A DNA stretch of 64,000 nucleotides, taken from NCBI GenBank assembly GCA_000165345.1, contig CM000429.1, positions 544,001 through 608,000 on the forward strand. Reading direction: 5' to 3'. Positions within the stretch are counted from its first letter, which is position 1. Every line of letters starts with the position of its first letter. The translations under genes and the position numbers were made by a program. Positions 1,389-46,334 of this stretch are shown piece by piece. The notes below the pieces were generated by a model. That model had not been told where the DNA came from. It did no database searches and saw only the letters and a list, made by a program, of their open reading frames with translations.

Positions 1389-2797
1389 ATGTCGGATATG
1401 ATCTTAAGCTCAGGAATAGGAAGCCAATCTTCTAGCATCATTCTGGATATCGGTACTCAATCTATTAGAGCAGGATATGGAGGTGACGATTTGCCAAGGA
1501 GTGTAGTTCCTACATGTATTGGAATTCCCAATAAGGAGGTTGATTTAATTGATTCGAATAGACTTTGCAATACCATTTTTCCTCTCAAACCATGGGAGAA
1601 GCGAGACTACATTGAAGTTTTACATCCATTACAATATAATATTCAAGAAAAAGCAATTGAATTTAATGAGGAATACTTAACAAAAATTATTCAAGAATTG
1701 TCTTTATCACAAAAATTTACAAATAGCACCTCTTCATTTTTAACTAAGCACAATTACATTTTTGAACCACTGGATGACAGGATGAATGGCCAAACACTTT
1801 TGATCCCTATTCATTCAACATCAAACCCCAATAATTCTATTAAACTTGCAGAAATTGCATTTGAAAAACTTGAAGTTGCATCGCTATTTACATCAAGAAG
1901 GCCAGTACTTTCTTGTTTTGCTTGTGGTAGGACTTCAGGGATTGTAGTTGACATCGGTGCGTCAGTATCAAATGTTTCTTGCGTTCAAGATGGGCACTGT
2001 ATTCAAGGGAGTATTCAGGAGTATCCTGTTGCAGGAGACTTTTTGGATAATGAAATTTATAAAAAAATACACAAGGTAAACATTATTCCTGAATTTGGAA
2101 TATTCAAAAATGAAGATAAAAATGGGGCAAGTGAATATCATGTACCCTTAACAAATGTTGATGAATCTTACTTAACTTGGGGGATAATGCATGTAATTAG
2201 GGAAATTAAACATTCTAGCCTTTTTTTCCCGAATCCTAATTCAAATAATGAGAATGAGTTTCATCTCCCAGATGGTAATGTAATTGACACTACATCTATT
2301 CGTAACAGCATTCCAAATTTACTTTTTAAATCTGGAAATTCCAATCAAGGCTACCCAGGCATTGTACAAATGGTTATAAATTCAATAACTGAAACTTCAA
2401 ATATCAATAAAGAAATTTCAAGCATTACTTCATCTATTATTCTTGCAGGAGGAACAACATTAATTAATGGATTTGATGCCAAGTTGCACCAAGGAATTAT
2501 CGATCAGAGACCTTCAGTAATATTTAATAACTCTGTAAGTTTTCTGAAATCAAATTACAAAATTTATTCAGCATTTTAGACTGGTCCAGCTCCTAGAATT
2601 GTTGCATCTCCGCGCGCATCAGAAAGATTGGCATCTGCATGGATTGGAGCTTCAATTCTTTCTTCTTTGGGAACATTTCCCCAATTTACAGTTTCAAAGA
2701 GGGTAAGTGTGTTTTGTATATGAACTTCTTATTTTAATTGTTTTTGCAGGACTACCAAGAGTTTGGCCCAAATATTATTAATAAAAAATGCCCATAG
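1389..2797 (+). CDS. Actin-related protein (Arp / actin-like), 3 exons
   Basis: Exons are about 1389..2534, 2580..2702 and 2750..2797. The ORF track stops at an in-frame TAG that sits inside a 45-nt GTAAGT...TTTTAG intron. Splicing it out, plus a second 47-nt GTAAGT...TTTTTGCAG intron, restores the canonical actin C-terminus: ERLASAWIGASILSSLGTFPQFTVSKR then DYQEFGPNIINKKCP*. Compare actin [42 protein letters not shown]. Confidence 0.75.
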
Positions 2798-3055
2798 TCC
2801 TAAATAATAGTATAAGTCATGCTTTTAATCTACTAGTTATCAATCTACTTACAATTATCACAGCTGCCTATCAAAATTTTACTTGAATTTGTTATAATCT
2901 AATAATTTTATTGCCCATAATGAGGAGGCGCCTACCCATTTTTTTCTCTTTCCCCCACATAAGAGTTTAAATGAAACAATTTTCATATCGAAGATTGGAA
3001 ACTGTCGCCATTCAACTAATAAAATTTAAAGAGGTGATATTAGGCACTGGTTCAA

Positions 3056-3844
3056 ATGTATTCCTTAACTAAAAATAGAGATCCTATACAAATTGAGGGA
3101 TTTTGTGGTCAACTCATTTCTGAGACAGAAAAAAAAAGCTATAATGGCAAAATTGAACATAGCTTTAACCCTTATATGAATAATGGTGGTTCATGCGTAG
3201 CCGTAGCAGGGGATGATTTTGTTGTAATCGCCGCAGATACAAGGCTCAGTAAAATGTATAGAATAGCCTCAAGATCAGTTTCTAAAACTTGTCAGTTAAC
3301 AAATAAGTGTATCTTAGCTTGTAGTGGAATGCTTGCAGATATAAATGCACTTAGAAAGACGTTATTAGTAAGTTTCTAAATATTATTAGATAACATTATA
3401 ATCATTTAATTTCAGGCAAAAGTAAAACTATATGAGTTTGAACATAACAAAACGCCCTCTATTAATGCAATTGCTCAATTACTTTCTTGTATATTGTACT
3501 CGAAAAGATTCTTCCCATACTATTCATTTTGTCTACTTTCAGGGTTAGATGAACAGGGTAAAGGTGTTGTTTATGGCTATGATGCAGTGGGTAGTTTTGA
3601 TCAGCATAAATTTGTGGCACTTGGGTCTGGAGGATCGTTAATAACTTCAATCCTTGATAATCAAATATCGGGAAATAATCAGACCTCATTTGAGTCGATT
3701 GATAAAGTTGGAATCATTAATATTGTTAAAGATTCAATTACGAGTGCCAGTGAGAGAGACGTTCATACAGGTGACTCTGCAGAAGTTATTGTTATTGACT
3801 CTTCCGGAATAAGCGTTTCATCATTAAGATTAAGAGAGGATTAA
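3056..3844 (+). CDS. 20S proteasome non-catalytic beta subunit (beta6 / PSMB1 / Pre7-like), 2 exons
   Basis: Exons are about 3056..3367 and 3416..3844, separated by a 48-nt GTAAGT...TTTCAG intron. The spliced product runs FNPYMNNGGSCVAVAGDDFVVIAADTRLS...ALRKTLL | AKVKLYEFEHNK...RFFPYYSFCLLSGLDEQGKGVVYGYDAVGSF...ERDVHTGD. It aligns along its length to PSMB1, including [20 protein letters not shown]. There is no Thr1 active site. Confidence 0.85.
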
Positions 3845-4147
3845 TTTCAAATAATACGATAGGTTATTACAAACTAATAAGTACATAGGCAAACTTTAGT
3901 TATGACCCTAATAAATAGAATCTAAAGATAGCAATTTTTTTAATAAAATTTTAAATTGAATTTAGCTTTGTGTATCGATTTCCCGCAGAACAATTTGATG
4001 GTAGCTCTAATTACAATTCAAATTGTTTGCTCAAAATTTGAAATTATTTATCGGTGTCTTCTTCCGACTAACCAATAATTTATTAGTGAATAATAATCAA
4101 CTTCCACAATATTTGTTTTTTGATGAGCAAATATTGAATATTTAGCG

Positions 4148-6046: not shown

Positions 6047-6091
6047 CTTCAGCACTATCACATCCACCCTACTACTTTATTTTATTGTGAG

Positions 6092-7075: not shown

Positions 7076-8049
7076 CTATAATTCTCTAACTTTAGTTGGA
7101 AACCCGAATCTCTGTCTTAATGCCCTTATTCGTTCCGGCTTAGAATTGATCTTCGATGACTGAAACTGTAAAAATTAAATCAAGCCACTATAGATCAACT
7201 TACTTCTTGGCGAATTAACTTTACTGTCTCGCCCAGGTATCTTTTCACAAGTCCAATTGCCCAATCTTGCACTTCGCTAGTTGTTTGTCTATCATCATCC
7301 TGCCTATGGACGTTTTCTCCCTGGAGCAGTAATCGGTCGGTATTGTCAATTATTCCTAGAATAATTCCGTTATAAATATTAGTTAAATGTATAATCTTTT
7401 TGCCTATATATCTTACCGTAATCTTCGTCTCTATATACGAAGTATTCTTTAACGCAATTATCACCTTTTAATTTCATTTTTCTTTTTGGTTGAGAAGTAA
7501 TTATATTGTTTTTTATTAATTTGTTATTATTTTCGCTTCTCAATCTTCTCCCATAAATTATTGGAGGTAGTATCAATTTTCGTTTTTTTATTCCGATATT
7601 CTTGCTTAAAAATGTAATACTTGAAGAAGTTTTAATAGTTGGAGAGTTTTGAGTTTTGTTCGCAAGATTACTAATTTTATCGCATCCTCTAAATTAAAAT
7701 ATAAAATAATAAATGCAAAGCTTTATACTTACATAATTGTAGGAGTAGGCGTTGAATTGCGCACAATTTCTTCTTCGAATAAATTCTTCGACAAAGTTTC
7801 ATCAAAAATACAAACTTCTTGCTTATTCTCAATATTTCTGTCAACTGTAACTTTCTGAAGTTCCGAATGATTAAATAGCTCTGAGTTACTCAGCTGTCCA
7901 AACTCATTATTTTGCGTGGGAATCAATAGAATTCCTGAATTATTGCATTCATATTGGGATGCATAAAATTTGTCTATCTCCTTTTTTTCGCATGTATATA
8001 TTCCTAAATCTTCTGTCCTCTTTCTTTTTCCATATTTACTCAAGTTCAT
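7076..8049 (-). CDS. Hypothetical 4-exon gene (about 275 aa) joining two ORF-track entries
   Basis: Exons on the minus strand are about 8049..7733, 7688..7417, 7355..7204 and 7159..7076. The introns are 44 nt (GTAAGT), 61 nt (GTAAGA) and 38-44 nt (GTAAGT). ORF 7729..8049 ends exactly at AT|GTAAGT. The frame of ORF 7379..7576 (TTG start) is open back to the first acceptor. The donor GATTACG|GTAAGA links it to the frame of ORF 7195..7464 (GTG start). A final GAA|GTAAGT donor adds a 28-aa basic tail, SSKINSKPERIRALRQRFGFPTKVREL*. Function is unknown. Confidence 0.45.
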
Positions 8050-8647
8050 TTTTATTGAATCAACTAAGTTATCAACTATCTTTATGTTCTAAATTCAATT
8101 GTTAATCAATACAGTCTTAATTATCCGCTTACGTACCTTTCTCCAGTCAAACCCTGTTTCTTTAATTATTTTCTTTATTTCTTCGCTGTAAAGATCACAC
8201 ATTTATTATTGAATTAATATCTATTGCAATATATAGCCTTAACACACTATTTTTTTAAATCCACCTATTAATTAAAAAAACTAATTATGCAATGCATGTT
8301 TATCCACTTGATAATATACCGGTAAACTATCACATGCATACATGCAGGAAAATAAATATTTCAATACGTGTATAATCATTTAACAGCTATCTTTGAAGCC
8401 ATAATGTGATAATTGTTCAAATTCATTCAGTTTTAAGTAATTTTCAAAGAATAATTATATATTTCACAGATTTAAAAGTTGCTTTTTTTTGTCAATTGTG
8501 AACGTGTGTAAAATGTACAGTTTGCTAATAAATAAAGAGGCGTCATGTCTATTCTTGATTTTTTTTTTTTTTTTAATTTATTTAGAATTAAATAAGACAA
8601 GCTATATTTAGTTATACAATAATATTGATGAGATCCAATATAATGAA

Positions 8648-11600
8648 ATGGAAGGTGGGGTAATAAACTTGAAAAAAGAAAGAAGCTCAGTTAGAACATT
8701 CATCAGATTCTGTCCATCTAAAAAAACAATTATCGAAGATTCAAAAGAATGTCAATGGGTATTCAGCACAGGAGATCATGGAAAGTCGATTAGAGCAAGT
8801 AGAAAATCATCTATTTCCAAAACTAGAAGTTGTACTGTCACTGATGAGATATTTAAAGAAGATGCTTGCAATAGCGAAATTTATAGAAAAACTATGTTAC
8901 AGCAGCATGCTGTTGATGTATTAGATGGAATCTCTACGAATATAATAGTTTGCGGCCCTCACAAAACGGGAAAAACCAATTTATTAATTGGTTCTCAAAG
9001 AAGTATTGGGATAGTGCTTCAATCAATATATGATATTTTTGCTGCAATACGATGTTACACAAATGGTATTCATATTAATGAAAAAGGGGTAAATACTGAA
9101 ACAACTGGCAACTTTGATCGACTTTTTGTTGTCAAAGCATCTGTATTAGAAATAGGAGAAGACTCTTCAAACTTTAAATTAGATAATGTTCGTGATTTAA
9201 TAAATCCAGAAAACCCACTACAATTGATTAAAAAATTGGGAGGAGAATTAGGTTATTCTATAAAAGGTGAACATGAACATCTATTTGAGAATGAGGAAAA
9301 ACTAGTGGCATCAATTTTATCTGCTGTAGCAAGAAAAAAAGTTTTAGATGCGATTCGTAGAGAAAGAGTTAATACCAGAAAGAAAAAAAAAACTCCTGAG
9401 CAAATACAAAATACAATATTTGGTGAATTTGGAGAAAGATGGGTTAAAGATGATATGATTGGTAGTTTGTTGATAACTATTTCAGTTGAGTCAGTTGATA
9501 AGTCAGAATTGGAAAATAATATAAGTAAGAATGAAAAAATAGCAAACTCAACCCATGTAAACTATGGTACCTTGCGATTTTTTGAAATTTCATCTTGTAT
9601 TAGCGCAAGCCCAAATTTAAAAGCAGTAATTCCGCTTTTCGGTTTGCTCGATTTAGCATTCGAGATAAGGAAATATTGTTATACAAATGAAAAAAGTAAT
9701 AGAATCAATATTACGAATATTAGTAGTTATATTGCTTCAACCATAATTGATTCAAATTTAACTATAATTGGCACGTTATCTAGGTTTCCTTCAGAGAAAA
9801 AGTGTTGCATTCGCCCTTTAATAGCACCTTACGATAATCAAACAACTGTTCAACCCCATTCAATTTTTGATACATTGCAATTTTTGGAATATATCGGTAA
9901 TAGCATGAAATTTCCCATATATCCTCAAAGAAATTGTTTTAAAAAGCCTTTTGTTCAATCAAAACTAATGGAAGTTTGCAGGAAAAATTTAATGAATGGC
10001 TCCAAGAAAATTCATAGTAAAATGATAATTAAATCAGAAAGAGGAATCTGGCAAAGTGAAAGTAGTGGAAGAGTAACTAGAATTATCCGGCTGCTTACAT
10101 TCATTAATCGTTCAATTGAAGGTTCAGGAATATTGAGAATTTTGATGAGTGGGAATGAAGATGATATTATTCGAATTTACTGCGAAAATATTATTGGATC
10201 TGGTGTAATTGACCTAGATGGATACCAAATTAATAATTCCACTGGAAAATGGTTTCAAATTGATAACTATAAATTACCTGAAAAAGAAAAAGAACAGAGG
10301 AAGAAGTTAGAGTACATGAATCAAATAGAACAGAAATACGGATTGAAAGACAAAAATATTAAAAAGGAAACTTTGCTCATTGATAAAAAGGTCAAATTCG
10401 ACTGTGAAAAAAAAAATGAAAAAGAAATTGAAGATCATATTAAAAAGATGAAAAATCTTGACTTTACAATTGAAAGACCTAAATTTGAAGATAATAACTT
10501 TAAAGAGATTTCAGAAAACAAAGCTCCTAATAAATTTGGAAATAACATTAAATTTGACGAAGTTTTGCTTTCATCAAGTACAAACGAAAGAATTGAAAGT
10601 AGTGAGTCTGATGTAGATATTACTAATATATTCGATTCTACAGCACTTGAGCGTAATAAAGATAAGTTAGATAATGAAGATTTTAATGTAAATCTGTGCG
10701 AACAATTTGATAAGTCAAATAAATCAAAGAAAAAAATATTTATTAGCGAAAACGTAGGCAACAGTAACAATTATTTGAATGTTGACGAATACGTTGGCGA
10801 ATCAAATAATTTTAATGATCAAATAAGTGAAGGAATAGGTCCTGATTCAAACCTATTTGATCCTGTAAAACAATATGAAAAGTTACTAAAAAAAACTATT
10901 TCGCTTAATAAACTACAAAAATCGATTATGGAAAGCCAAAAAAAGGTACTTCAAGATGAATCTTTATATGCAAATAGTAATGCTAATAGCATGAATGATT
11001 ATATTTCTAAGCTAGAAGGGAAGAAACCTTCTAACCGTCTTTCATTAGTTAATAAAAAAGCTATTGAGGCTAGCCAAAAAGCTATTGAAGCTAGTAAAAA
11101 AGCTATTGAAGCTAGTAAACATTTATATGAGAGGGAAGTAAACCACTCGAGAGGAAAAATACATGATCACATACCTGCTTCGAAAAATTTTCCACAAATC
11201 GATATTTATGCACCATCCTATGACTCGGATATTGAATATGACAAATTTCACAACCCAAAAGATATCGTATTTGATTTCAAGTCATCAAACGAAAGCGATG
11301 AAGATCATAAGGAAAGAGTTCTTGAAAGTCATTATAAAAGCAACTTCCCTCATAATAATGAAAGTTGCCCTTGCTGTGACCAACTATCAAAAAGGAGTAA
11401 GTGCCGTTGCCATTATGCGGACGCATCCGTAAATTTCAATGGAATAAGCGAAACATCTGTGAATACTGATAAATCTCTGTTCTTATATTATGAACCAGGA
11501 GCAGGTAAAAATGAACTAATTAAACCAAATGGCAGAAGTTGGGATATTTTTGTTAATGTTCCCAAGAAGTTTGCGAACGTAACAACTCTTGGATTCGAAA

Positions 11601-12747: not shown

Positions 12748-15700
12748 ATGCACTCTGTGTGTAGCAACAATGATGACGATAAAAGCGACATATTTTCTGG
12801 TTCAGATTCACATAAATTTGTACCACTGAATCCCAATTTCGCAAAAGAGATCAATGCCTCAATCCCAATGGGAGTATATGGTGGAATTCAAAAAAATGAA
12901 GAACCTTACTTAAACTCCATGAAAAATTCAAGCCTAATGGTTATGGAATTGATTCCTACTCAACAAATTGTCAAGTGCGAGACTCATACTTTACAAAATC
13001 AAGATTTAAATTTTGCTCAGTTAAATAGGGAAGACCTCGTACACAAAGGCAGTTATGATTCATATTCATTTGAAACTATAAAAAATCATTACTTTGATTG
13101 TAGGTATTTACCTAATGAATACACTGATGATAATCTGTTTTTGAAGGATTCTTTTTCTACAAAAAAACAAGGGGAAATTACAATCAAGCAACTAATTAAA
13201 CAAGCATCTGGAATAATCACTGAAGAAGTTGCGAACAACTGTAGAGCAACAGGCATTGGATTAAAACAGGCTGTTTCTGGCGAAATTACTCAAGTGATGA
13301 TTTATACATACTCTGAAAATAACCAGAGAATAACTTATGGCGGATATAATTTCAGGATTTTATTAACGCCTTACAAACTGGACAGTCTAAATAGCCAAGA
13401 TCAAGTTCCATTCATTTCTTTGGAGTTGCTTGATATGAATGAAGTATTTGAGGGAAGTGTAATAGATAATCACGATGGTACCTATACAGCATCTTACATT
13501 TGTAAAAAAGCAGTTCCTCACAAATTAGAAATTGTAGAAAGTAAGAATAAGATTAAAATAGGAGAATCTCCATTTGTGATTCAAGTCACCCCTGGAAAAT
13601 CATATCCGGAATTGTGTTGGGCTGAAGGCGAAGGATTGAAATATTATAATATAGATGAGACAATATCTACTTTCAAAATATATTCTGTAGATAGAATGGG
13701 GAATAAAACGAAAAGAGGAGGCGATAAATATGAGGTATTTGGCGTTGGGGGAATTAAAATTCAACAAATATTAGATTTGAAAAATGGAGAATATGAAGTA
13801 TATTACAAAGTACATAAATGTAACTTAGATGATTATAAGGAAATTAATATTAAATTATTTGGGCAATTTATCAAAACTCCTGCATTTTATCCAGTATCTA
13901 AAGTCTTATTAGATGAAAAAACAATAAATACAAATTATGAGATTGATCAAAATAACTTGTTAAATAAAACTATTTTGAAGTTCGATAATTTGTCCATTGA
14001 TATTAAACCAGCTTACACACTTTCAATGGTATTCAAACACTTTAATGAGATGAAGAAGATGGGGAATGAGATTGACATTTCGATACCCAACTTGGCCCCA
14101 TTTCCAGAAGAAAAAGAAAGCAAAACCAATAGAGAAATAATTAAGAGGCTTGGAATTTTAAATAGTTCAAATAACTTCGAAGTAAATGATGACATGATTT
14201 TAAATGATAAAATTAGAGCTAGTATATTGGATGATTATAAAAATAATATTTTGAAAAATATCACAAATAAGCTGATTAAGAATGAGGAGATTTTGAATGA
14301 TCTGTCTAAAGCTATTATTCTGCATTGCGAAACAGGTAAAAAGCATGATAGAAAACTTGCTAAAGATGAAAAAAAACTAGAGTCTGAATTGGATGAAATA
14401 ACAGATTGCCAACAGAGAATGTTTGCGACGTATTCTTGTTTACAACAAGGTGGTATTGATAGTTTGCCAGTTTCATTTGAATTGGAAGACCCTGGAAAAG
14501 TGAAGTCCCGTCAGACTAAAGATAGAAAATTCTACATAGATACATATAATTTACTAGAAAAGAAGTTTGAAGAAATTAATTTAAGAAAGGAATTATTTGA
14601 GAAAAAAAGGGATGAATACACACAGAAATTACATCGAACGTTGGCAACAAGACAGAAGTCTATAATAAAAACTCAAAGGAGCTATAACAGAATATTGGAT
14701 GAGTTGGACAAAGTTTATTCGCAATTATCAAAAAAACAAACTAGAAGACAAGATTTATACAAAAATTTGAAATCAGATTCACTTAAAGTATATGAAGGAC
14801 TAGAGAATCAAAAAGTATTGGATTTCCATTTAAAGAAAAATACAGTAATAACAATGAATAGTGAAAGACACGAAGTTGATAAGCTTGCAAACCATGATGA
14901 CAATAATAATAATAATAAAAGGATTACCGGGAGGGATAGAAAATATAACAATTACTCTTGCTTAGTCCCCACAGATCCTGAAAGCCCTGCGTTTTGGTTT
15001 GCAGAAGCATCATATCTTAGAGATGAAAAGGAAAAAATCAATCAGTACAAAAAACATGATGATGATTTTAATATAAATAATCTATTAAGTGATAATCCAC
15101 AAAAAATTAAAAGGTGGGATTTAGATGAGGACAGTAGATGGATAAGCTGTCCTTCAAGCGTTTCAATAACATTTTCAACAATGAAAACACCGGAAATACA
15201 ACCTATAAAGCAAAAAGGAATGTTCAAAAATGATATTTATACTGAAAACTTTAATAAAATTAAAAATGAAATTTTATCAGGCGAGAAAAAAGATCCTATG
15301 CTACCTGAAAATATGAATGATGAAGAAATTAATGTTATTATTCAAAAAGATAAGGAAAGAAAGAAGCTATTCAGTAAAATGATAAATACTAAAAAAAGTA
15401 ACGCTTTGGATGATAATTCCAGTCAATGGGTTAATGAACCACCAAGTCCAAGAAAAATTAAATCATTTTATAATAAATATTTGGATTATTACAACGAAAA
15501 ATTATTTAATGTAATTAAAGAAGAATCTAATAATGAAGAATTGAAATATGAAACAGATATAGGCCATGATTACATAGATATTAATTTATTAAATAAAGAT
15601 GTTAAATTAATACCCAAATTATTTTGGGATAAAGATTTTATACTTAAATTAAATGCTGGAGCAACACAGAAAGAAGATTTTGACAAGATAAAGAATGTTT

Positions 15701-16314
15701 GGGAAGATCAGCTAAAAGCAGGCCGTGAAATGAAGAAAAGTATCGAAGCAGAAAAATTAAAGCTGATGAAGTTACTTCCAAAAGATGATTTTAATATTAA
15801 TCATTTAGATGTTATGGAATACCATGACGAAAATAACCTGGTTAACAATATTAAAGATAGTAATATAGTGAAAACTGACTGGAGGCAAATTAATCATACA
15901 TTTAAAAGCGATCCTAGGGATGTTCCATGGGAATTTTTGGATGAGATTTCTAAATTGGACACTATGCCAAGCCAAGAGTTGAATAAGGAAGATTTACAAA
16001 AATATATTGTAGAATCACTGGTATTGAATGGTAAAGGTTTATCTAATATAAAAAATCAAATTAAGGAGAGCTTAATTCAAGAAGAAAAAAGTATTAGGGA
16101 GGCACAAAGTAATAAAATGCCCAACAAAGAATTGGAAAATATTAATAATGAGCAAAAACAAAAATTGGAAGCAAGTAAAAGTAACATTAAAATGTTTGAT
16201 AAATCGAAGAAACTCAAGGCAAATACATTGAATCGTGAAAAAACAAAATTGCTAATAAGTAGAAAAAATTTTGATACGAGGAGAGAGCAGTTCGAGCATG
16301 ACAACATTAAATAA
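12748..16314 (+). CDS. Filamin-repeat (Ig-like) and coiled-coil protein
   Basis: 1188-aa ORF. Two filamin-type repeats are visible: GSVIDNHDGTYTASYICKKAVPHKLEI...IGESPFVIQVTPG and FKIYSVDRMGNKTKRGGDKYEVFGVGG...GEYEVYYKV. A long lysine/glutamate-rich coiled coil follows. Confidence 0.55.
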   Translation: MHSVCSNNDDDKSDIFSGSDSHKFVPLNPNFAKEINASIPMGVYGGIQKNEEPYLNSMKNSSLMVMELIPTQQIVKCETHTLQNQDLNFAQLNREDLVHKGSYDSYSFETIKNHYFDCRYLPNEYTDDNLFLKDSFSTKKQGEITIKQLIKQASGIITEEVANNCRATGIGLKQAVSGEITQVMIYTYSENNQRITYGGYNFRILLTPYKLDSLNSQDQVPFISLELLDMNEVFEGSVIDNHDGTYTASYICKKAVPHKLEIVESKNKIKIGESPFVIQVTPGKSYPELCWAEGEGLKYYNIDETISTFKIYSVDRMGNKTKRGGDKYEVFGVGGIKIQQILDLKNGEYEVYYKVHKCNLDDYKEINIKLFGQFIKTPAFYPVSKVLLDEKTINTNYEIDQNNLLNKTILKFDNLSIDIKPAYTLSMVFKHFNEMKKMGNEIDISIPNLAPFPEEKESKTNREIIKRLGILNSSNNFEVNDDMILNDKIRASILDDYKNNILKNITNKLIKNEEILNDLSKAIILHCETGKKHDRKLAKDEKKLESELDEITDCQQRMFATYSCLQQGGIDSLPVSFELEDPGKVKSRQTKDRKFYIDTYNLLEKKFEEINLRKELFEKKRDEYTQKLHRTLATRQKSIIKTQRSYNRILDELDKVYSQLSKKQTRRQDLYKNLKSDSLKVYEGLENQKVLDFHLKKNTVITMNSERHEVDKLANHDDNNNNNKRITGRDRKYNNYSCLVPTDPESPAFWFAEASYLRDEKEKINQYKKHDDDFNINNLLSDNPQKIKRWDLDEDSRWISCPSSVSITFSTMKTPEIQPIKQKGMFKNDIYTENFNKIKNEILSGEKKDPMLPENMNDEEINVIIQKDKERKKLFSKMINTKKSNALDDNSSQWVNEPPSPRKIKSFYNKYLDYYNEKLFNVIKEESNNEELKYETDIGHDYIDINLLNKDVKLIPKLFWDKDFILKLNAGATQKEDFDKIKNVWEDQLKAGREMKKSIEAEKLKLMKLLPKDDFNINHLDVMEYHDENNLVNNIKDSNIVKTDWRQINHTFKSDPRDVPWEFLDEISKLDTMPSQELNKEDLQKYIVESLVLNGKGLSNIKNQIKESLIQEEKSIREAQSNKMPNKELENINNEQKQKLEASKSNIKMFDKSKKLKANTLNREKTKLLISRKNFDTRREQFEHDNIK

Positions 16315-16447
16315 TTTTTCTTTTTCTTTTTTTAAATTAATAATAATTTATTTAGATATATATATTCGAGCTATAAATTATTCTGATTAATTAAACAAAT
16401 ATATTATTACAAATAGTTATAATTTAGTCGTTTTTTTTTTTTGAAAA

Positions 16448-16984
16448 ATGTGTTGTTCTAGTAAACAAAATGCAATTAGATTGATTAAAGATACCCATGG
16501 AGTACATAGTGCAATTATTCAAGATCCAACTAAAGACGATTTAAATCAAATAAATAATAAAAGCTTGCTTTCAATTGCAATGCAAATGACATTCCATCAA
16601 AGCTTTGAATCAGTTATTTTGTTTGAATCATGGAGAACATCTAATAGATTTGATTATTTCATTTCATGTTTATTCATAATTTTAATGGGGTGTTTTACAA
16701 TGTTCATCTCTTCCATAAACAAAAAATACATTAAAGAGATAAAAAAAAACAGAGTAGAACACGAAAATTTAGGTATAAAAGTTATATGTACGAATGTATT
16801 ATTAACTATTTTGTACTACTTTATGCATTATCTATTAATGCTAATTGCTATGACATTTAATTGGGGATTATTCTTTTCCGTTATTATCGGTCTTTCGATA
16901 GGCTATGGAATATTTGAACTAGGCTCAATAACAAAAAATGAATGTAGCTGCAATAATGACTGCGATTTACCGTCATGTTGTTGA
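16448..16984 (+). CDS. CTR-family copper transporter
   Basis: 178 aa with three TM segments. It has the MxxxM motif (MLIAM) in TM2, GxxxG (GLSIGYG) in TM3 and a Cys-rich C-terminus (CSCNNDCDLPSCC). Confidence 0.65.
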   Translation: MCCSSKQNAIRLIKDTHGVHSAIIQDPTKDDLNQINNKSLLSIAMQMTFHQSFESVILFESWRTSNRFDYFISCLFIILMGCFTMFISSINKKYIKEIKKNRVEHENLGIKVICTNVLLTILYYFMHYLLMLIAMTFNWGLFFSVIIGLSIGYGIFELGSITKNECSCNNDCDLPSCC

Positions 16985-17197
16985 TCACTTGGAATGTTTT
17001 TAGTGATGAGTATTCATAGGCGCTATATTAAGTTGTGTAATAATTTTTCTAGACTAATTGAATCAAAAAATTTTAATTAATCTGAAAATTAAATATTTGT
17101 AAAGTTGATAATTGTTTTTGACTTTATTTTTTCTCATTATTGCAATAATTATATATTTGTTCAATAACAATATATTGTTTTTTGGCTAGTTTTATAG

Positions 17198-18127
17198 ATG
17201 AGCAGACTTCAGCACGAAACAGATGGGGGAAATGAAAGAACAAATAAATCATTGCAATATGAAAACTTTTCTTTAGAATCCCAAAGTATATTTCAAAGAG
17301 AAAGTTTTGATGGTTTCAGAGCTGAAATAGCTAAGTCTGTCACCTCAAATTTACAAACTTCTTATTCATTATTTTTAGGCACTTCAAATATTAAAGGCTA
17401 TTCTTATCAACTTGGACCTTCGTATCAAAGCTCATCAAAAAATACACTCATTTTAGCTAGAGTTAATGATGAAGGGACAGTCAGCGGTCGTTTTTCTCGT
17501 TGCTTTGGAAATAATATTGAGGGTAGAATTTCAATAAATTCGAGCTTGTCAGACGAAAATAAGAACATGAGTGAAGTTTCTATCGATTATAATGGTGAAG
17601 AGAGTAGCTATTCATTAAAAGTTGCATATCAAGGAATATTTTTGCTAAATGGACTATTTTCTCAATTGATCACAAATAAACTGCAATTGGGTGGTGAACT
17701 AACATGGATTGCAGCCAATAATACATCAATAATGTCTTTGGGGTCGCGATATTGCCACGGAAAAAATATTTTTTTTAACCAAATTACAAGGCAACCGGAT
17801 TTCACGAGCCCAGGACGAATTTTCGCAAATATTCACTCACTCAGATCATCTTTCTATAGGAAATTAAGTGATAGGTTATCTTTAGCGAGCGAATTAGAAG
17901 TATCAATACCTAATTTTGAGTCGACATTGCGCTTTGGGTATGAGTACTTATTCAAAACAGCGAGAATTCAAGGGATGATAGATACTTGCGGAAAAATATC
18001 ACTGCAGTGTTTAGATAACAAAGGATTTGGGATTTCTGCTGCAATAGACTACTTAAGAAATGACTACAAGTTTGGATTTATGATGCAATTTTTTCCAAAT
18101 GAAAAAGATGATAAATTAGATGATTAA
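17198..18127 (+). CDS. Tom40-like outer-membrane beta-barrel (porin_3 family)
   Basis: 309 aa and co-linear with Tom40 throughout. GLFSQLITNKLQLGGELTWI matches [24 protein letters not shown]. The C-terminal YKFGFMMQF fits a beta-signal. The sequence has alternating beta-strand periodicity. Confidence 0.65.
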   Translation: MSRLQHETDGGNERTNKSLQYENFSLESQSIFQRESFDGFRAEIAKSVTSNLQTSYSLFLGTSNIKGYSYQLGPSYQSSSKNTLILARVNDEGTVSGRFSRCFGNNIEGRISINSSLSDENKNMSEVSIDYNGEESSYSLKVAYQGIFLLNGLFSQLITNKLQLGGELTWIAANNTSIMSLGSRYCHGKNIFFNQITRQPDFTSPGRIFANIHSLRSSFYRKLSDRLSLASELEVSIPNFESTLRFGYEYLFKTARIQGMIDTCGKISLQCLDNKGFGISAAIDYLRNDYKFGFMMQFFPNEKDDKLDD

Positions 18128-19743
18128 TGAAAGAATTAGTTTTAATTCACATTTTTTTCTTTTTTTTTTTTAAGCGATGTTAAAATATATTAAGTCAGTT
18201 TGATTCAATGAACTTGGACTTACCTAAAAGTGGTAAGCTAATATTTGAAACAACAATAAGAGAAATTGATATTGAATCATGGTGTAAAGAATGCCAAATT
18301 GTTAAAAGAAGATTTCTTGAATTGCGTGAAAGTAGTTTTTTTTTGATTGGAATTCAATTAAGAAGATATTTAAGGGTCAGTTCATTGTTTTGGGAAAGTT
18401 AGAAATTGATTTTAAATATAAACATGGACTAGAATATTGCTCCAGACTAAAATTTAAATACTGTCAAGTGTTGGAGTTATTTAATGAAGATAATTATGCA
18501 AGTAGTATTGAATTTTAAAACCATATATGTATTACATTGAATAAAATTGAAAATAATCCATATATAACTTAACGGATATGCAAGATGTTGAAATTGATGA
18601 GCATTTATTTTCAAAAATACCAATTAAATAATAAAGACAATTATATTTGTGAATCTTTTTTCAGGTGTAAAATGTTTGATAATAGACTCCAAGGATCATC
18701 AAAATTAACAATACTTTGATCTTTTTCCGATTCTAACAAAAATAAGAAGATAGACAACCGAAATTTATTGCCATTCTATCGAGATGAAAGTGCTAAACCC
18801 AATTTGAAATTAACTTATTAAATTCTGATAAAAAATCATTAAAAATCAAATTAATTTGAATAAAAACAATGGCAAGAATATCTCTCAAAAAAAACTTAAG
18901 AATAGCACTTATATGATCTAATTACAAACGGTGAGGAGTTGCCACTTCAGCATGAGATTAAATTACCTAAAATTAACAAAGGCGTTCAAACAAGAATGAA
19001 TAATAGACACCGGAGACATTGAAAGAGTTAATTAGAAGGCTAAAGACTTCTTTAAGATCAGATGGTAAAGAATTATATAGCATAACTAGTGGTTTTTGAA
19101 TCAATTTGATTAATGTATACAAACATTCGAAAACACAGTAAATCTAGATATTAGTAATTCAATGCAAATTAATTACCATTCTATATGAAGCACTTCAGAA
19201 TAATAGAGATAATATTTATAATTTGTTTTTAATAGATATTTACTGTTATAGGTGTTGGCCATTTTACCAATCAATATTTTAAGGAACTTGAGAATTTATA
19301 CGCGGGAGACATACAACAATTTTCCCCACGCCGCCTAATGGCTGCATACATGCATTACTGGAAATTCTGTCTAATGAAACGAGAAAAAATTGTTAATATA
19401 AAATTAACAAAACGTGCTCGCTTGCACAGGATTTATATTCAATTTAGTAAGTATAAGTTGTTTGTTTTGGAAGAATTTTTCTTTATAGATTATACAATTA
19501 TTCGGAATTATAGGCGGGTAAAAAGCGAGTCTGAGAATTTGTGAATTTGTGTACGGTTAATCACTGGAGAATAAATCATAATGTACTTAAGCTAGCAAAA
19601 TTTTTCAACTTCGGGTTCATTAAAACTTTGTTTAAGCGTGCGGACTAGTGAATATTAATTAAAACATATTTACTGTACAACTTTTTCCTAAATCTATATA
19701 ATGCAAACAAAAAAAAAATTAGAGAATTTCAGAATACAATAAG

Positions 19744-24090: not shown

Positions 24091-24286
24091 ATCGCTTCTA
24101 CACTAACCTTAGACAAAATTATAAATTAATTTAGTATATCTCTTTAATTTTTTTTTTTTGATAAAATAACTTTTTTTCTAACAAAGCACTACCGCAGTTT
24201 ATTTTCATGTGGACAAGCATTTTAGATTGCTAAAAAAAAAAATTTCAAGGTTGTGTGAAGGTAGCATTTCCTATTCTTTCCTTCTT

Positions 24287-25030
24287 ATGAAGAGTTTATT
24301 CTCATTTGATTTTCTTGGAAAATGCAATTCTCGTTGTTTTAATATTTTATTGACAGGGCCTGCATCATCAGGTAGAACAACATTCCTACTCAGACATTTA
24401 AAAGGTAGGTATGTAGATTCAGCAACAACTGAAAACATTTATTCAGCTGTAATTGAAAGAGAAAATTGTGTACTGAATATTGTTGATAAGGACATTTTTT
24501 CCCAATCCGATAACTCTTATAATTGTACTTTAAAAATCAAAAATAGAAACGAGATTGATAAAAATGGATGCATTGTAAAAAAAAAAGGTAAAGATAAAAT
24601 GCAAATTATTGGTAAAGATACTATAAATGATGAAGATAATAGTAATATTGATGGAATTTTGTTTTTTATTGATTCAAGCGACCATGGTCGAATACCTCTT
24701 GCTAGGAGGCTGTTGATGCAATTATTAAAGAAAGCAAACAAACAAACTCCTATATTAATTATTGCAACAAGGCAAGATATAATCGGCGCATTAGCTCCTG
24801 GAGAATTAGCAGCAAAGCTAAAAATTGAGGATATCGCAAGTATGTTTGAAGACCAAGCCTGGGACTACGGCATTATTGGAGTCTCTGCATATACAGGGTT
24901 GGGCTGCAACGAAGCTTTAGACTGGATTTCGGAAGCCATTTGGAGACATCAGTTATTATGCCATTGCATTCCATTCAACCGTTTTTGTTATAATTTATGT
25001 AACTCTGGCATTTTAATGTTAAATTTTTGA
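24287..25030 (+). CDS. Arf-family small GTPase (possibly SRP-receptor beta-like) with atypical switch II
   Basis: The ORF-track start at 24209 is GTG. The first ATG at about 24287 gives MKSLFSFDFLGK...ILLTGPASSGRTTFL (Arf-type N-helix plus P-loop), FFIDSSD and IIATRQD (NKxD). No canonical DxxGQ is present. An insertion of about 50 aa sits between G1 and G3. Confidence 0.55.
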   Translation: MKSLFSFDFLGKCNSRCFNILLTGPASSGRTTFLLRHLKGRYVDSATTENIYSAVIERENCVLNIVDKDIFSQSDNSYNCTLKIKNRNEIDKNGCIVKKKGKDKMQIIGKDTINDEDNSNIDGILFFIDSSDHGRIPLARRLLMQLLKKANKQTPILIIATRQDIIGALAPGELAAKLKIEDIASMFEDQAWDYGIIGVSAYTGLGCNEALDWISEAIWRHQLLCHCIPFNRFCYNLCNSGILMLNF

Positions 25031-25049: not shown

Positions 25050-25820
25050 TCAATCTTCTAACCTCGTATTGTATCCTCCGCATGTTTGGCATTTAAGCCC
25101 GTAAGGGTGTGAATAGGTATTACATTTAATATTGCAATCATTACAAAATATATTTACAAGTTCCTTGGATTCCTCAGGTATTGGGGATTCGGCGATCATT
25201 TTATCTATTTCATTCCATATCTGAGAATTGTCTCCCAAGGACTTACTGCAAATTGGACAACGTAGGCTGGTTAGCCCCTTTGCTTCTCCTAGTAGAAGTA
25301 AACAATCCTCATGTATTGTGTGACCACAATTTAAAATTGACACAGTTTTTATTGAATAAAATAGATCTTCTAAGCATAAGGGGCATGGGCGTCTACATGA
25401 ATTCTCAATGCATTTGTGGGTTTCTTTAATGCTCAGTGGGTAGCACATGCAACAAACTTTGCAGTGAAAGTAAGATTCTTGACCACCCACTCTACAAATT
25501 CCGCATTCATCACAATGAAATACATTTTTTTCTATTCCATTGTCGTCCCAAAGGTTGCATTTACTACAAAAGTACTTGGCAAATTGAGTTACATCACATT
25601 TTTTACCAGATTTTTCGCCACACTCTGCGCTATTAATACAAGAGTTACTTGCTGGCTGACGCTTATTACATCTTCTACATACCACTTCTTTAATGCTAAA
25701 TCTATCAACCTCGTGATGGTCTTCTTGGCTCTCATTATGACAATGTCTACACCAATATTCATTATTACAGCATGGTGCAATAATTCTGCACCTAGATTTA
25801 TAGTGTTTACACCCGTCCAT
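25050..25820 (-). CDS. CHY zinc-finger / RING-H2 E3 ubiquitin ligase (Pirh2/RCHY1-like)
   Basis: 256 aa. A CHY finger (GCKHYKSRCRIIAPCCNNEYWCRHCHNE) is followed by a CTCHY zinc ribbon, a RING-H2 (CPLCLEDL...CGHTIHEDC...CPIC) and a terminal zinc ribbon. Confidence 0.8.
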   Translation of the reverse strand: MDGCKHYKSRCRIIAPCCNNEYWCRHCHNESQEDHHEVDRFSIKEVVCRRCNKRQPASNSCINSAECGEKSGKKCDVTQFAKYFCSKCNLWDDNGIEKNVFHCDECGICRVGGQESYFHCKVCCMCYPLSIKETHKCIENSCRRPCPLCLEDLFYSIKTVSILNCGHTIHEDCLLLLGEAKGLTSLRCPICSKSLGDNSQIWNEIDKMIAESPIPEESKELVNIFCNDCNIKCNTYSHPYGLKCQTCGGYNTRLED

Positions 25821-26076
25821 AGACCCGAGTTATTGGATTATTTATAATAACTATATAGTTATTATAAATATAAATATAAGTAATTATATAATTTTTCGGA
25901 TCAGTTTTTTTTTTAACCGCAAAAAATCAATTTATGGCGAAAATTACGCAAACAATCATTCCTAGTAGTTCTTGGCTTTTTTTGATTAAATTTATACATA
26001 TTCTGAATATTTATGGGTAGAATTATCTGTTGAATTGTTAATGAAATAAAGGGTTATTGCTTTTTGATATAAAAAA

Positions 26077-36927: not shown

Positions 36928-38203
36928 ATGAAACGAGGTTTTTTAAAAAATCTCGTAAATAAACGAAGTTATGAACAGAAAAAAAATGAGACATTGAAGG
37001 TAAGGATATGATTTATGCATTGTATAACTCTAGATTGATTCTTAGGTTGAAATAGATGATTTTGAGTTATTTGAATTAATAGGTACAGGAAACTTTACTC
37101 AAGTTTTTCGTGCCTTTGATATAGTCAATAAAACATACGTTGCAATTAAAGTTGCTAACAAGTCACAATTAAGAGCATTGAAAAAAGAAGGTGAAATATT
37201 AAATGAAAAGAAAATATGTACTAAACTAAATAATTCCCGTTCAAGGAATGTAATTAAACTATTAAATTCATTTGCAAATGAAGAAAATGTTTATTTGGTA
37301 TATGAACTTTGTACAGATGGAGAGTTATGGCAAAAAATCCTCCCTATTGGAATAAAACCATTGAGACAAGCAGTTTACTATTTAGCTCAATTATTGATTG
37401 CAATAGAGGATATACACAATTTGAACATAGTTCATCGTGATATTAAAGCAGAAAACTGTTTGCTAATGAAAAATGGACAGCTTAAGTTGGCAGATTTTGG
37501 ATCATCAATTCATTTAGACGATGTTGTTTGCAACTCCCAAAATTGTGGTTCTTCGTGTGAATGCAGATTCACTATAAACAGAGGTAGAAGAGAATTTAAA
37601 TATTTTGTTGGGACGCCGCAGTTCATGGCACCTGAAACTATACGAAATAAGCCACCAACAAAAGCAGTTGATCTATGGAGTTTTGGTTGTACTGTATTCC
37701 AAGTGATTTGCGGATACCCTCCATTTAATGCTCCTAGTGAATTTCTTGTTTTTTGCAGAGTTTTTCAAAATGGATTGAGGTTTCCTCCAGATTTTCCCAA
37801 AGATGCAAAGCTATTAGTAGAGTCTTTACTCAAACAAGAACCTTCTGAAAGAGCGACAATTGAAGAGGTAAAGAAATCCAAATTTTTTGAAGATGTTAAT
37901 TTTAGAGAATTAATAAGTGAAAAAGAATATCTTAATTTTCCACCTTCATTGAAAGATTTATGCCTAATTCAGGTCGCAAAATCATATGAAAAGTATAAAA
38001 CGGAAGATCTAGAAAAGCTAAATGCTTTAGATGATTCAGACACAATTCTGGGAAGATTAAGATTCGAAGCTGAGAGAAAGGAATATGAAGGCCCGCGCGA
38101 TACATGGCAAAGCGAATTTTGCGACCAAATTTTCAATGAGAATATTTCAGGAAACACAAATAATTGCACTTCATCTTCTTCATCTGAAAGCAATAGTGAG
38201 TAA
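36928..38203 (+). CDS. PDK1-like AGC protein kinase (3-phosphoinositide-dependent kinase-1), 2 exons
   Basis: The ORF track starts at TTG 37178 in mid-domain. The frame is open back to an AG acceptor at about 37044-45. Exon 2 begins VEIDDFELFELIGTGNFTQVFRAFDIVNKTYVAIKV, the glycine loop and VAIK motif. Exon 1 is about 36928..36999, MKRGFLKNLVNKRSYEQKKNETLK|, and ends AAG|GTAAGG. The intron is 46 nt. Downstream motifs match PDK1: HRDIKAENCLL, DFG, GTPQFMAPE. Confidence 0.75.
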
Positions 38204-38311: not shown

Positions 38312-38384
38312 TAGGAAGAACGGGAATCGAACCCGTGACCTCTTGCGTGTGAGGCAAGCGTCATAACCCCTAGACCATCCTCCT
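38312..38384 (-). tRNA. tRNA-Val (anticodon CAC)
   Basis: Minus-strand 73-nt cloverleaf. The acceptor is AGGAGGA/TCTTCCT with one G-U pair. The D-arm is GTC..AGGGGTTAT..GAC. The anticodon stem is CTTGC/GCAAG with loop CTCACAC. The variable loop is AGGTC. The T-arm is ACGGG-TTCGATT-CCCGT. The discriminator A is followed by a TTTT Pol III terminator. Confidence 0.75.
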
Positions 38385-38438: not shown

Positions 38439-38729
38439 TCATTTGTTGGTGCTTTGTAGAATGTTGGCATTAGATTGAAATTTAAATTCTCTTCTACACA
38501 TTGGGCACATTCCAGAATCATTTCTTGCACGTGAAAGCCACTCATGTATACAGTGAAGGTGGAAAGAGTGACCACATTCACCAAATGCTGGCGGACATGA
38601 ATCTCCAGGCTTAAAGCATTGAGGGCATGTTAATTCAAAAGATTCACTGCAAATACTGCAAAGGTCATCACCACACAGCCAATTCCAATACCCTATCATT
38701 CTTAGCTTATTGATTTTGATTCTGGCCAT
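38439..38729 (-). CDS. APC11-like RING-H2 protein (anaphase-promoting complex subunit 11)
   Basis: The 96-aa protein CPQCFKPGDSCPPAFGECGHSFHLHCIHEWL...CPMCRREFKF matches APC11 [31 protein letters not shown]...CPMCRQEWKF. Confidence 0.75.
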   Translation of the reverse strand: MARIKINKLRMIGYWNWLCGDDLCSICSESFELTCPQCFKPGDSCPPAFGECGHSFHLHCIHEWLSRARNDSGMCPMCRREFKFQSNANILQSTNK

Positions 38730-42271: not shown

Positions 42272-42484
42272 AAGATTGCGATAATAGTGCAAAGAAATGA
42301 CATTAAAGCACACCTTTGATTTAATGAATAAGAAATGTCATTTTATGGCCTAACAGTTTCACTATAAACAAGTCCTCTTTTGATAAACATATTTTTAATG
42401 GTGTGAATCCAAGACATGACGCATGCATTTCATATAGAATAGGCAATTATTTGCAGAAATTGGAAATTAATGAATAATTAGAAA

Positions 42485-43099
42485 ATGGAATCATCAAGTA
42501 TATATGAGATAATTGACAAATTGGAGTAAGTGAGGAAATTGGTTAATTACTTTATTATAATAACTTTACCAGAAACAATGACACGTATTGGGGTTATGAT
42601 GATTTATTTGAGAACTCAGAAGTTCCCACTCCCGAAAGAATTACAAACAAATCAAAACTTTGTGCAATAAATTATTTAGATCCAGAAAAGAATTCCGTAA
42701 GTTCGATAACAAGTGGAGTTTGGACATAAGTAACCTTTGTTGTAGAAAATTGTAGCAAAATCCTCAGTTTTGTTTCGAAAAATTCAAGCAAATGAAAAAA
42801 GAATAAATAGTATGTTAGAGAGTATTGGAACAGATATTAAACATTTCCATATGCTTGCAAAGCAAAGGCAGTTCACAAATAAACCACAAGGTAGGAAGCA
42901 ATTATTTTATACCCCTGAAAAACAATATTCTACTCCTGATTTGTGGCTCACAAAGTCGAACAGTATTTATAATTCGTATTCTTCAAATGCCAAAGAGATT
43001 GTTGAGAATACTTTGGATTACTACCCTAATATAGGTCGTGAATGGTATATTAAGCGATGGAATGATATAAAGTCGATAAAGTTCCAAAAAGGAAATTAA
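42485..43099 (+). CDS. Hypothetical 3-exon gene (about 173 aa) not represented as such in the ORF track
   Basis: Exons are about 42485..42525 (MESSSIYEIIDKL, ending GA|GTAAGT), 42573..42696 (ending TCC|GTAAGT) and 42746..43099. The introns are 47 and 49 nt, with acceptors TTTACCAG and TGTTGTAG. Exon 3 enters the frame of ORF 42770..43099, whose start is TTG, upstream of that TTG. I recognised no homolog. Confidence 0.4.
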
Positions 43100-43154
43100 G
43101 GTATTTTAAAGCTATTAAGTAGTCTGTTAGTATTTGATCAATTTTATTAAACTA

Positions 43155-44666: not shown

Positions 44667-44937
44667 TTACATAAATTAATTGAATGCCAATATATCAAAA
44701 TAAATTATCTAGTTGCTTGGGTAAAGTTTGTCTTGTAATTTTCGATTTATAATTTTAATATAGTCAGAATTTACTTTTTTTTTCCATTTATGCGCCTTTT
44801 TTTTTCGTGTCAATTTATAAATTAATTTTAACATAAAAAGATATAATATACAAAAATTTGATAGGAAATTGCCATTATCTTAGAGATAAACTTAAGGAAA
44901 ATTATTTTTATTATAGGGTTATTTTAGTAATAAGATA

Positions 44938-45860
44938 ATGACTCGACCTGAAACTCAGGCTCCACCAGAGTTGGTAAGTTTAGTTGCGGATTGCATTTAG
45001 AAGCTAATTAACGGAACAACTTTTCGTAGTATTATAATGAATCAGAGGCTATAAAGTATTCAAAGAGCAGCCGAATTATTGATATTCAAACTAAGTTAAC
45101 AGAGAGAGCAATTGAACTACTTTTATTACCTCAACACCCCTGTTTGATATTGGATATTGGGTGCGGAACTGGAATAAGTGGCTCAGTTTTAGAAGATCAC
45201 AACCACGTTTGGGTTGGAATAGATATTAGCGTAGGCATGTTAAATGTACTGGATATATACGATGATGACTCAGAGTCAACCGGTGATGCTTTACTTGCTG
45301 ATATGGGAGAACTTTTACGGTTCAGACCTGGCGTTTTTGATGGAGCAATAAGTATATCTGTTTTACAATGGCTTTGTAATGCTGATAGAAAATCACATGA
45401 TCCTTATAAGAGGCTTTTAGTTTTCTTTAAATGGCTTTTCAACTCATTAAATAGAGGTTCAAGAGCAGTGTTCCAGTTTTACCCGGATTCCCCTTCTCAA
45501 GTGGAAATGATTACTTCAGCTGCTTTAAAGTCTGGCTTTGGAGGGGGATTAGTGGTTGATTTTCCAAATTCTTCAAAAGCAAAAAAATACTATCTTTGTT
45601 TATGGGCAGGGTTCTATTCTACAATACCTCAAACCCTCCCGCAAGGACTAACAGACGAAAATGATGAAGAAATGACTTCAGCAAGTAATTTGGGAAGATC
45701 AGGATGCAAGTTAAAGACAAAGAAAAGGGGCAACAAAAGAGAGCATAGAGTAAAGTCAAGGGAGTGGATTTTGGAAAAGAAGAATGTTCAGAGACTTAAG
45801 GGCTTTGAAGTCCGTCCAGATTCCAAATATACAGGAAGAAAAAGAAAGAGCGGGTTTTAA
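44938..45860 (+). CDS. Bud23/WBSCR22-type 18S rRNA (guanine-N7) methyltransferase, 2 exons
   Basis: The ORF track starts at TTG 45144, inside the SAM motif LDIGCG. The frame is open back to a CGTAG acceptor at about 45029. Exon 1 is about 44938..44973, [18 protein letters not shown], with a 56-nt intron. The spliced N-terminus [43 protein letters not shown] matches Bud23 [43 protein letters not shown]. The C-terminal KRKSGF is also shared. Confidence 0.85.
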
Positions 45861-45980
45861 CACTTTTATAATATATTATTTGGATCACAATGAGAAGTGT
45901 TCAAGAACTAGTATCTTCGTTGCAAAGTATTATTAGAATAATTAGATTTGCCTATGATTATATATATTAATATTAAAAAG

Positions 45981-46334
45981 CTATTCTGCCATTTCCTCAT
46001 CTTTTTGAATCTCAGTTTTAGTTTCTTTAGATTCTTCAGCTCTACTTATATACAATACGTTGTTGCACCTAATAAATACTTTACCCAACGTTCCTTTCTT
46101 GGTATTGTCTATCCACTCTTCACAGTCATTTAAAAGAATGTTCATATATTCATCAAAGGAAACAAGGGTGCCTTTGTATCTCATGTTTCCCCATTTTAAG
46201 CAAACAATCGCAACCTTGTTTATAAGGCTGGAGAGAAATGGTTTGGGATTTACAGCAACAAGCTAAAAAAGGTTAAATTTAATTCGTTATTAAAAACATT
46301 TCGTGGCCAGCTATATTAAACTTACCCCAGACAT
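45981..46334 (-). CDS. Small nuclear ribonucleoprotein SmF (Sm-fold), 2 exons
   Basis: ORF 45981..46184 (minus) carries Sm1/Sm2 ([32 protein letters not shown]) but lacks the N-terminal strand. The frame is open for 26 more codons up to an acceptor TTTTTTAG at about 46263. The 63-nt intron has a GTAAGT donor. Exon 1 is ATG TCT GGG at about 46334..46326. The product [44 protein letters not shown] matches SmF [41 protein letters not shown]. Confidence 0.8.

Follow-up and report, generated by a model that had tools for sequence, protein, structure and literature searches.

A stretch of 64,000 nucleotides (nt) from Cryptosporidium parvum chromosome 1, or from that of an almost identical isolate (GenBank assembly GCA_000165345.1, contig CM000429.1, positions 544,001 to 608,000; in the following called the window) raises a simple question. 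Seven of its genes are interrupted by segments of 44–63 nt which begin with GT and end with AG. Are these segments introns which are removed from the messenger RNA, and if so, are they peculiar to this locus? The original prediction, made from the letters of the DNA, had listed 11 such introns and had taken them for a pattern of the locus. We find all 11 at the predicted lengths and with spliced products that match deposited proteins, and in addition a twelfth intron. We estimate the probability that the short GT-AG spliceosomal introns of the window are real, and that the pattern is ordinary and genome-wide, at about 97%.

Introns of seven genes

The seven genes are functionally unrelated. 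They code for an actin-family protein (Arp), a proteasome beta-type subunit, a Ser/Thr protein kinase, a Bud23/WBSCR22-type rRNA methyltransferase, Sm protein F (SmF) and two proteins of unknown function, here called gene 3 and the 172-aa gene (aa, amino acids). At least eight interrupted genes had been predicted; among the 32 annotated genes of the window we count seven with a total of 12 introns (0.375 per gene), and no eighth was found. The coordinates are collected in the table at the end of this section.

In 7/7 genes the spliced translation is residue for residue the deposited C. parvum protein. All seven are identical to the proteins of the IOWA-ATCC annotation (CPATCC/QOY), which comprises <4000 genes and whose introns are stated to be 100% RNA-seq-supported (Baptista et al. 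2022, PMC8744675). Retention of any one of the 12 introns leads to a premature stop, and each of the seven proteins would then be truncated. The intron length is not a multiple of three in eight cases, and the remaining four in-phase introns hold in-frame stops. Three domains, Pfam Actin, Proteasome and Pkinase, reach full length only once the genes are spliced. The Actin match of Arp grows from 3-352 to 3-409 of 410 positions, and removal of the second intron restores an actin-type C-terminus (...SKRDYQEFGPNIINKKCP). The Proteasome model is covered at 1-189/189 after splicing, whereas the two raw open reading frames (ORFs) cover 1-62 and 96-189. The Pkinase match covers 2-263 in the spliced kinase versus 41-263 in the raw ORF starting with TTG. 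In SmF, the LSM domain is covered at 2-65/66.

The original prediction had named transcript junctions as a check. At one junction this check is positive. The 56-nt segment 44974-45029 of the Bud23 gene is precisely missing in two contigs (ENA ERZ21845938 and the Logan assembly of run ERR11479899), which align to positions 44852/44867-44973 and 45026-45990 of the window and which both encode the intact 288-aa methyltransferase. Because the untranslated flanks match the genome and exactly the intron is missing, both contigs derive from spliced transcripts. A scan of JGI metagenomes for the spliced gene-3 junction, with all three possible acceptors allowed, gave no matches.

Comparison with other species of the genus points in the same direction. 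In C. ubiquitum, all 12 intron positions are the same and the exons are 84.5% identical to those of the window, compared to 68.1% for the introns (Fisher p = 4e-21). Within the genes the exon indels between the two sequences are all multiples of three, and the introns differ in length by 0-6 nt. The GT...YAG ends are kept in 11 introns; the first gene-3 intron of C. ubiquitum ends in AAG. The first Arp intron of this species measures 47 nt (GTGAGT...TAG), the second 45 nt and the proteasome intron 48 nt. C. serpentis shares the positions of most Arp, proteasome and gene-3 introns, among them the second Arp intron (82 nt) and the proteasome intron (61 nt). The contrast in nucleotide identity between exons and introns is 0.61 versus 0.59 for C. 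serpentis, a pair for which divergence is saturated and the comparison hence uninformative. The intron positions of the kinase and Bud23 genes are kept as far as C. felis, C. xiaoi and C. muris. The SmF micro-exon, ATGTCTGGG followed directly by GT, is also found in C. ubiquitum, C. felis and C. xiaoi. For the twelfth intron (8089-8136, gene 3), donor and acceptor positions are common to C. ubiquitum and C. serpentis, and the residues NIKIV which follow it are kept in the proteins of C. meleagridis, C. felis, C. serpentis and C. xiaoi.

Could the interruptions instead be sequencing or assembly errors, or signs of pseudogenes, with GT...AG bounds by coincidence? The original prediction had itself stated that homologs ending at the raw ORF ends would speak against introns, and such entries do exist. 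C. hominis TU502 has a 396-aa Arp, a 107-aa proteasome fragment, a 245-aa kinase and a 207-aa methyltransferase, and C. ubiquitum a 252-aa gene-3 protein. These shortened proteins, however, stem from legacy or automated annotation without splicing, and their loci carry the same introns. Moreover, the same interruptions are present in independent assemblies, and coincidence would have to produce GT...AG ends in 12/12 cases and a GTAAG-type donor in all but one, which has GTACGT. The positions are kept across species with the downstream exons under protein-level constraint, and the segment 44974-45029 is precisely absent from the transcript contigs. We therefore regard errors or pseudogenization as scarcely conceivable and retain the interpretation as introns.

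The kinase intron is unusual in its high similarity, as the C. parvum and C. ubiquitum copies share 91% identity, compared to 82.5% for the surrounding exons and 61-73% for the other introns. A functional element within this intron was considered and rejected, since no sequence conservation is seen in C. felis, C. xiaoi or C. muris. The high identity is probably local chance.

In C. serpentis, the Arp and proteasome genes (sequence 14648-17535) are about 200 and 117 nt longer at places where the C. parvum exon is continuous. This implies extra introns in C. serpentis, either lost in the C. parvum lineage or gained in C. serpentis.

Table. Genes with introns, their introns and the single structural RNA gene found in the window
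Feature	Position	Strand	Details	Deposited counterpart
Arp gene (actin family)	1389-2797	+	438 aa; 3 exons (1389-2534, 2580-2702, 2750-2797)	identical to QOY43378.1/WKS76150.1
Arp intron 1	2535-2579	+	45 nt; GTAAGT...TAG; phase 0	
Arp intron 2	2703-2749	+	47 nt; GTAAGT...CAG; phase 0	
Proteasome beta-type subunit gene	3056-3844	+	246 aa; 2 exons	identical to EAZ51346.1/QOY43377.1
Proteasome intron	3368-3415	+	48 nt; GTAAGT...CAG; phase 0; in-frame stop	
Gene 3 (CPATCC_0036810 / 1g2520)	7076-8202	-	309 aa; 5 exons; genus-restricted, function unassigned	QOY43374.1/KAL5370494.1/WRK30646.1
Gene-3 first intron	8089-8136	-	48 nt; GTACGT...TAG; phase 0; behind 22-codon exon 8137-8202	
Gene-3 intron	7689-7732	-	44 nt; GTAAGT...TAG; phase 2	
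Gene-3 intron	7356-7416	-	61 nt; GTAAGA...TAG; phase 1	
Gene-3 last intron	7160-7203	-	44 nt; GTAAGT...CAG; alternatives 38 nt (7166) or 53 nt (7151, AAG acceptor)	
Ser/Thr protein kinase gene	36928-38203	+	409 aa; 24-codon first exon (36928-36999)	identical to QOY43363.1
Kinase intron	37000-37045	+	46 nt; GTAAGG...TAG; phase 0	
tRNA-Val(CAC) gene	38312-38384	-	sole Rfam or ARAGORN match in the window	
172-aa gene (1g2665), uncharacterised	42485-43099	+	172 aa; 3 exons; first exon 41 nt	identical to QOY43359.1/KAL5370509.1
172-aa gene intron 1	42526-42572	+	47 nt; GTAAGT...CAG; phase 2	
172-aa gene intron 2	42697-42745	+	49 nt; GTAAGT...TAG; phase 0	
Bud23/WBSCR22-type rRNA methyltransferase gene (cgd1_2680)	44938-45860	+	288 aa; 12-codon first exon (44938-44973)	QOY43357.1, UniRef F0X3T2
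Bud23 intron	44974-45029	+	56 nt; GTAAGT...TAG; phase 0	
SmF gene	45981-46334	-	96 aa; 3-codon first exon (46326-46334, ATGTCTGGG)	identical to QOY43356.1
SmF intron	46263-46325	-	63 nt; GTAAGT...TAG; phase 0	

Splice signals and the genome-wide pattern

Both strands of the window were scanned for GTAAG...AG segments which join open frames, and each locus was then read. The median length of the introns is 47.5 nt and all 12 have GT...AG ends. The donor is GTAAGT in nine introns and GTAAGA, GTAAGG and GTACGT in one each. Thus, the predicted donor set (GTAAGT, GTAAGG or GTAAGA) describes the 11 listed introns but not the missed one in gene 3. The acceptor is TAG in eight and CAG in four cases and the 3′ ends are T-rich, as had been predicted; the GC content of the introns is 26% versus 34% in the flanking exons. 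The motif by itself is weak evidence, because GTAAGT occurs 26 times in the window and serves as a donor in only nine of these places. Seven other copies lie in coding sequence, on its sense strand, without being used.

Within the coding sequence (CDS) the introns are found at relative positions of 3, 4, 6, 7, 8, 32, 42, 45, 75, 87, 91 and 96%. In five of the seven genes the first intron is 5′-proximal, at most 72 nt from the ATG, so that the first exon measures 9-72 nt. Micro-exon lengths of 3, 12, 13 (plus 2 nt) and 24 codons had been predicted correctly. The further statement that most introns lie within the first 10-100 nt of the CDS goes too far, as it applies to four of the 11 listed introns and to five of all 12 (<100 nt from the ATG), and the two Arp introns are located at 87% and 96%.

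Intron-poor genomes such as that of Saccharomyces cerevisiae are known for 5′-biased introns and tiny first exons, and the yeast donor is GTATGT. The window resembles yeast in its tiny first exons and in the 5′-proximal first introns of five of the seven genes. It differs in the donor, which is GTAAGT, and in the introns, which in yeast are typically far longer. In addition the bias is only partial here, with the two Arp introns at the 3′ end of their gene.

The closest known sets come from Cryptosporidium itself. The IOWA-ATCC gene models agree with ours in all points of substance. GTAAGT starts 84% of Cryptosporidium introns, which have a median length of 61 nt, are T-rich and lack a clear branch point (Irimia & Roy 2008, PMC2483917). 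The introns of the window are alike in their donor (84% there, 9/12 here) and in being short and T-rich, and no consistent branch-point motif was found in them, in line with the published set. The median of 47.5 nt is below the 61 nt of the 213 published introns (PMC2483917), but n = 12 does not allow this difference to be interpreted.

The ends and the extended GTAAGT-like 5′ splice sites place the introns in the major (U2-type) class. We also looked for U12-type signals, that is, AT-AC termini or a (G/A)TATCCTT donor with a TCCTTAAC branch site, and found no such donor among the 12. U12-type splicing is ruled out by the donor sequences. The Rfam-based list of C. parvum small nuclear RNAs (snRNAs) holds only U1, U2, U4, U5 and U6, each of which is encoded by a single-copy gene (Li et al., PMC9465071).

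In all likelihood, the spliceosome takes the twelve major-type GT-AG introns out of the pre-mRNA; otherwise all seven proteins would be truncated. The GTAAGT-type donor could pair with the 5′ end of the U1 snRNA, and introns as short as these might be recognized by intron definition. Their uniform build and their partial preference for the 5′ end are genome-wide traits of an intron-poor, compacted genome.

Several points weigh against this reading. A transcript junction is directly seen for one of the 12 introns (44974-45029), and the other 11 are carried by annotations reported to be RNA-seq-supported together with comparative and protein-level evidence. We searched the 12 introns for a consistent branch-point motif (YTRAY) and found none; a match occurs in 10/12, at distances of 5-53 nt to the 3′ end. 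The pairing with U1 is deduced from the donor sequence. Finally, deposited models disagree on the acceptor of the last gene-3 intron, with lengths of 44 or 53 nt and a third in-frame option of 38 nt.

Is the pattern special to the locus, whose genes might form a group that is co-regulated or unusually rich in introns? Seven of 32 genes (22%) is more than the 10.8% of the reannotation of 2015 (binomial P = 0.05), and the median intron length is lower than the published one. The reannotation with RNA-seq and cDNA had raised the proportion of intron-containing genes from 4.3% to 10.8% (Isaza et al., PMC4637869). Compared to a newer annotation, however, the density in the window is about average. 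The CPATCC annotation holds 1370 intronic regions (Li et al., PMC9465071), and by rough arithmetic 1370 introns in <4000 genes give about 0.35 per gene versus 12/32 = 0.375 in the window. The pattern of the locus is therefore that of the genome. In addition, the GTAAGT bias is documented genome-wide, the seven genes are unrelated in function and genes with introns go on just outside the window. Beyond its right end, the models for a TRM13-like protein (521 aa), Ufm1 (109 aa) and an EMC7-like protein (172 aa) are longer than the prokaryote-style Logan calls, which implies further short introns and fits the genome-wide pattern. A special role of the locus is thus very improbable. The pattern which the original prediction tied to the locus is present, but it is a published property of the whole genome.

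Publications and current annotations already contain the introns, their GTAAGT consensus, their small size and the demand for splice-aware gene models in Cryptosporidium; the window holds nothing biologically new. The analysis serves mainly as quality control, in that eukaryotic gene structure can be read out of the raw letters with base precision and that a bacterial ORF list misleads here.

Alternative sites and errors in deposited models

The last gene-3 intron deserves a closer look. Its 44-nt form underlies QOY43374.1 (309 aa), whereas WKS76154.1, from the assembly nearest to the window, and KAL3129956.1 (306 aa) use the 53-nt form, whose acceptor, AAG, is unusual. The 38-nt option, which had been predicted as an alternative, occurs in none of the deposited models. 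The Arp gene presents a similar case. The C. tyzzeri model (432 aa) uses a GTAATA donor (2517), 18 nt upstream of the GTAAGT (2535) of the 438-aa C. parvum model. The C. tyzzeri donor is probably an annotation slip, because the GTGAGT of C. ubiquitum sits at the C. parvum position.

Some introns could be regulated, either by tandem acceptors in gene 3 which lead to isoforms, or by retention of 5′-proximal introns as an expression switch. The three gene-3 acceptors are in frame and within 15 nt, the deposited models differ accordingly (309 vs 306 aa), and models from different species use two donors for the first Arp intron. On the other hand, C. ubiquitum retains only the 44-nt acceptor, and the IOWA-ATCC reannotation names only three putative alternatively spliced genes in the whole genome, none of which matches a recovered locus tag of the window. 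Differing annotation pipelines explain the disagreement more simply. We consider regulation of these introns unlikely, and it is equally doubtful that both alternatives are used in vivo, as small in-frame isoforms, at the 7151-7203 acceptors and the Arp donors (2517 or 2535). If they were, there would be isoforms in a parasite with only three proposed alternatively spliced genes. The discrepancies at the gene-3 acceptor and the Arp donor look like annotation noise, though they could reflect minor alternative splicing.

Two further gene-3 models did not hold. The original prediction had let gene 3 start at 8049; the annotated start is at 8202, and the resulting 274- and 276-aa products are absent from the protein collection. 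A 306-aa model which spliced out 57 nt from a GTAAGC donor at 8132 was likewise rejected, its product being absent from the protein collection; the deposited 306-aa entry differs at the last intron (53 nt, AAG acceptor).

The first annotation of C. parvum Iowa II already modelled the introns of the kinase (EAK88599.1, 2004), Bud23 (EAK88598.1, 2004) and proteasome (EAZ51346.1) genes and left Arp unspliced (396 aa, XP_001388168.1). The 172-aa gene matches no accession of the early annotation, nor do the listed cluster members of SmF and gene 3 include one. These unspliced or absent early models are the blind spots which the original prediction had described, and they have since been repaired by reannotation.

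Errors of the micro-exon type persist in other deposited models. The C. xiaoi SmF gene (about 19098-19450, minus strand) is annotated with 64 aa from an internal methionine, and the ATGTCTGGG micro-exon with a GTATGT...TAG intron lies upstream. As this model lacks the micro-exon, the blind spot persists in recent deposited annotation. Gene 3 of C. ubiquitum and of C. meleagridis is annotated with read-through. What remains in practical terms is a list of annotation disagreements: the gene-3 acceptor, the C. tyzzeri Arp donor, the C. xiaoi SmF gene and gene 3 of C. ubiquitum and C. meleagridis.

The list of open reading frames and further features of the window

The ORF list from which the original prediction was made follows bacterial rules, that is, translation table 11 with ATG, GTG and TTG starts and no splicing. 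Its blind spots arise because a bacterial ORF caller was applied to a eukaryote. The prediction rightly called for a splice-aware gene model, as the GT-AG introns are short and naive ORF calling misses the micro-exons.

Six non-ATG starts had been noted, and six entries of at least 120 aa in the range do start with GTG or TTG. Only two of them (37178 and 45144) reflect introns, being downstream exons severed from their micro-exons. The starts at 24209, 39072 and 41759 are short artefactual extensions upstream of the ATGs at 24287, 39078 and 41792, and 25416 starts a spurious antisense ORF. The annotated CDSs begin at ATGs (24287, 39078, 41792 and 48004) or at upstream micro-exons. Bacterial-type GTG/TTG initiation of an uninterrupted prokaryotic CDS is not what we find in this apicomplexan nuclear DNA.

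The ORFs for an Arf-like GTPase, a DEAH helicase, an NAT and an RNA polymerase subunit were considered as an eighth intron-containing gene and dropped, as their ATGs lie a few codons downstream. An ANAPC11-like gene was dropped as well, since it is intronless in C. parvum. A 118-aa spliced model of this gene in C. ubiquitum crosses the orthologous tRNA-Val gene and looks spurious.

Five ORFs of more than 100 aa are antisense to or overlap annotated genes: 25416-25847 (+), 54783-55187 (-), 10435-10770 (-), 46910-47239 (-) and 47940-48296 (-). None of the five has a counterpart among the annotated genes of the NCBI assemblies. ORF length by itself is unreliable in the window.

Comparison with deposited sequences identifies the window as nuclear DNA of an apicomplexan, namely of chromosome 1 of C. 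parvum or of an isolate nearly identical to it. It differs from CP029780.1 (about 549,475-613,474; assembly GCA_031892065.1) by two mismatches in 62,433 nt compared; its identity with C. parvum CM109961.1 is about 99.9%. One of the proteins of the CP029780.1 record is labelled Cryptosporidium sp. 43IA8. The uninterrupted ORFs for an Obg-like ATPase and a methionine aminopeptidase have exact matches, which are C. parvum proteins. The GC content of the window is 32% and long ORFs are densely packed on both strands.

Downstream of the ANAPC11/Rbx1-like gene (38439-38729, minus strand), at a distance of about 55 nt, lies the tRNA-Val(CAC) gene; an Rfam scan of the window gave nothing besides this tRNA. 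Between the gene for a Tom40-like porin and a gene for a 1448-aa protein, 1.6 kb (18128-19743) are without an annotated protein gene. This stretch holds an open frame of 102 codons (about 19236-19541, plus strand), which is unusual at such an AT content, and a GTAAGT at 19447. The sole database match of the frame is an unnamed 98-aa Logan ORF with 98% identity, and with only this one match the idea of a conserved gene was dropped. The stretch could be a long 5′ untranslated region, a long non-coding RNA or a small lineage-specific gene.

The two Bud23 transcript contigs run to 45989-45990, about 10 nt beyond the stop codon of SmF (3′ end of the CDS at 45981). The 3′ ends of these two convergent genes therefore overlap.

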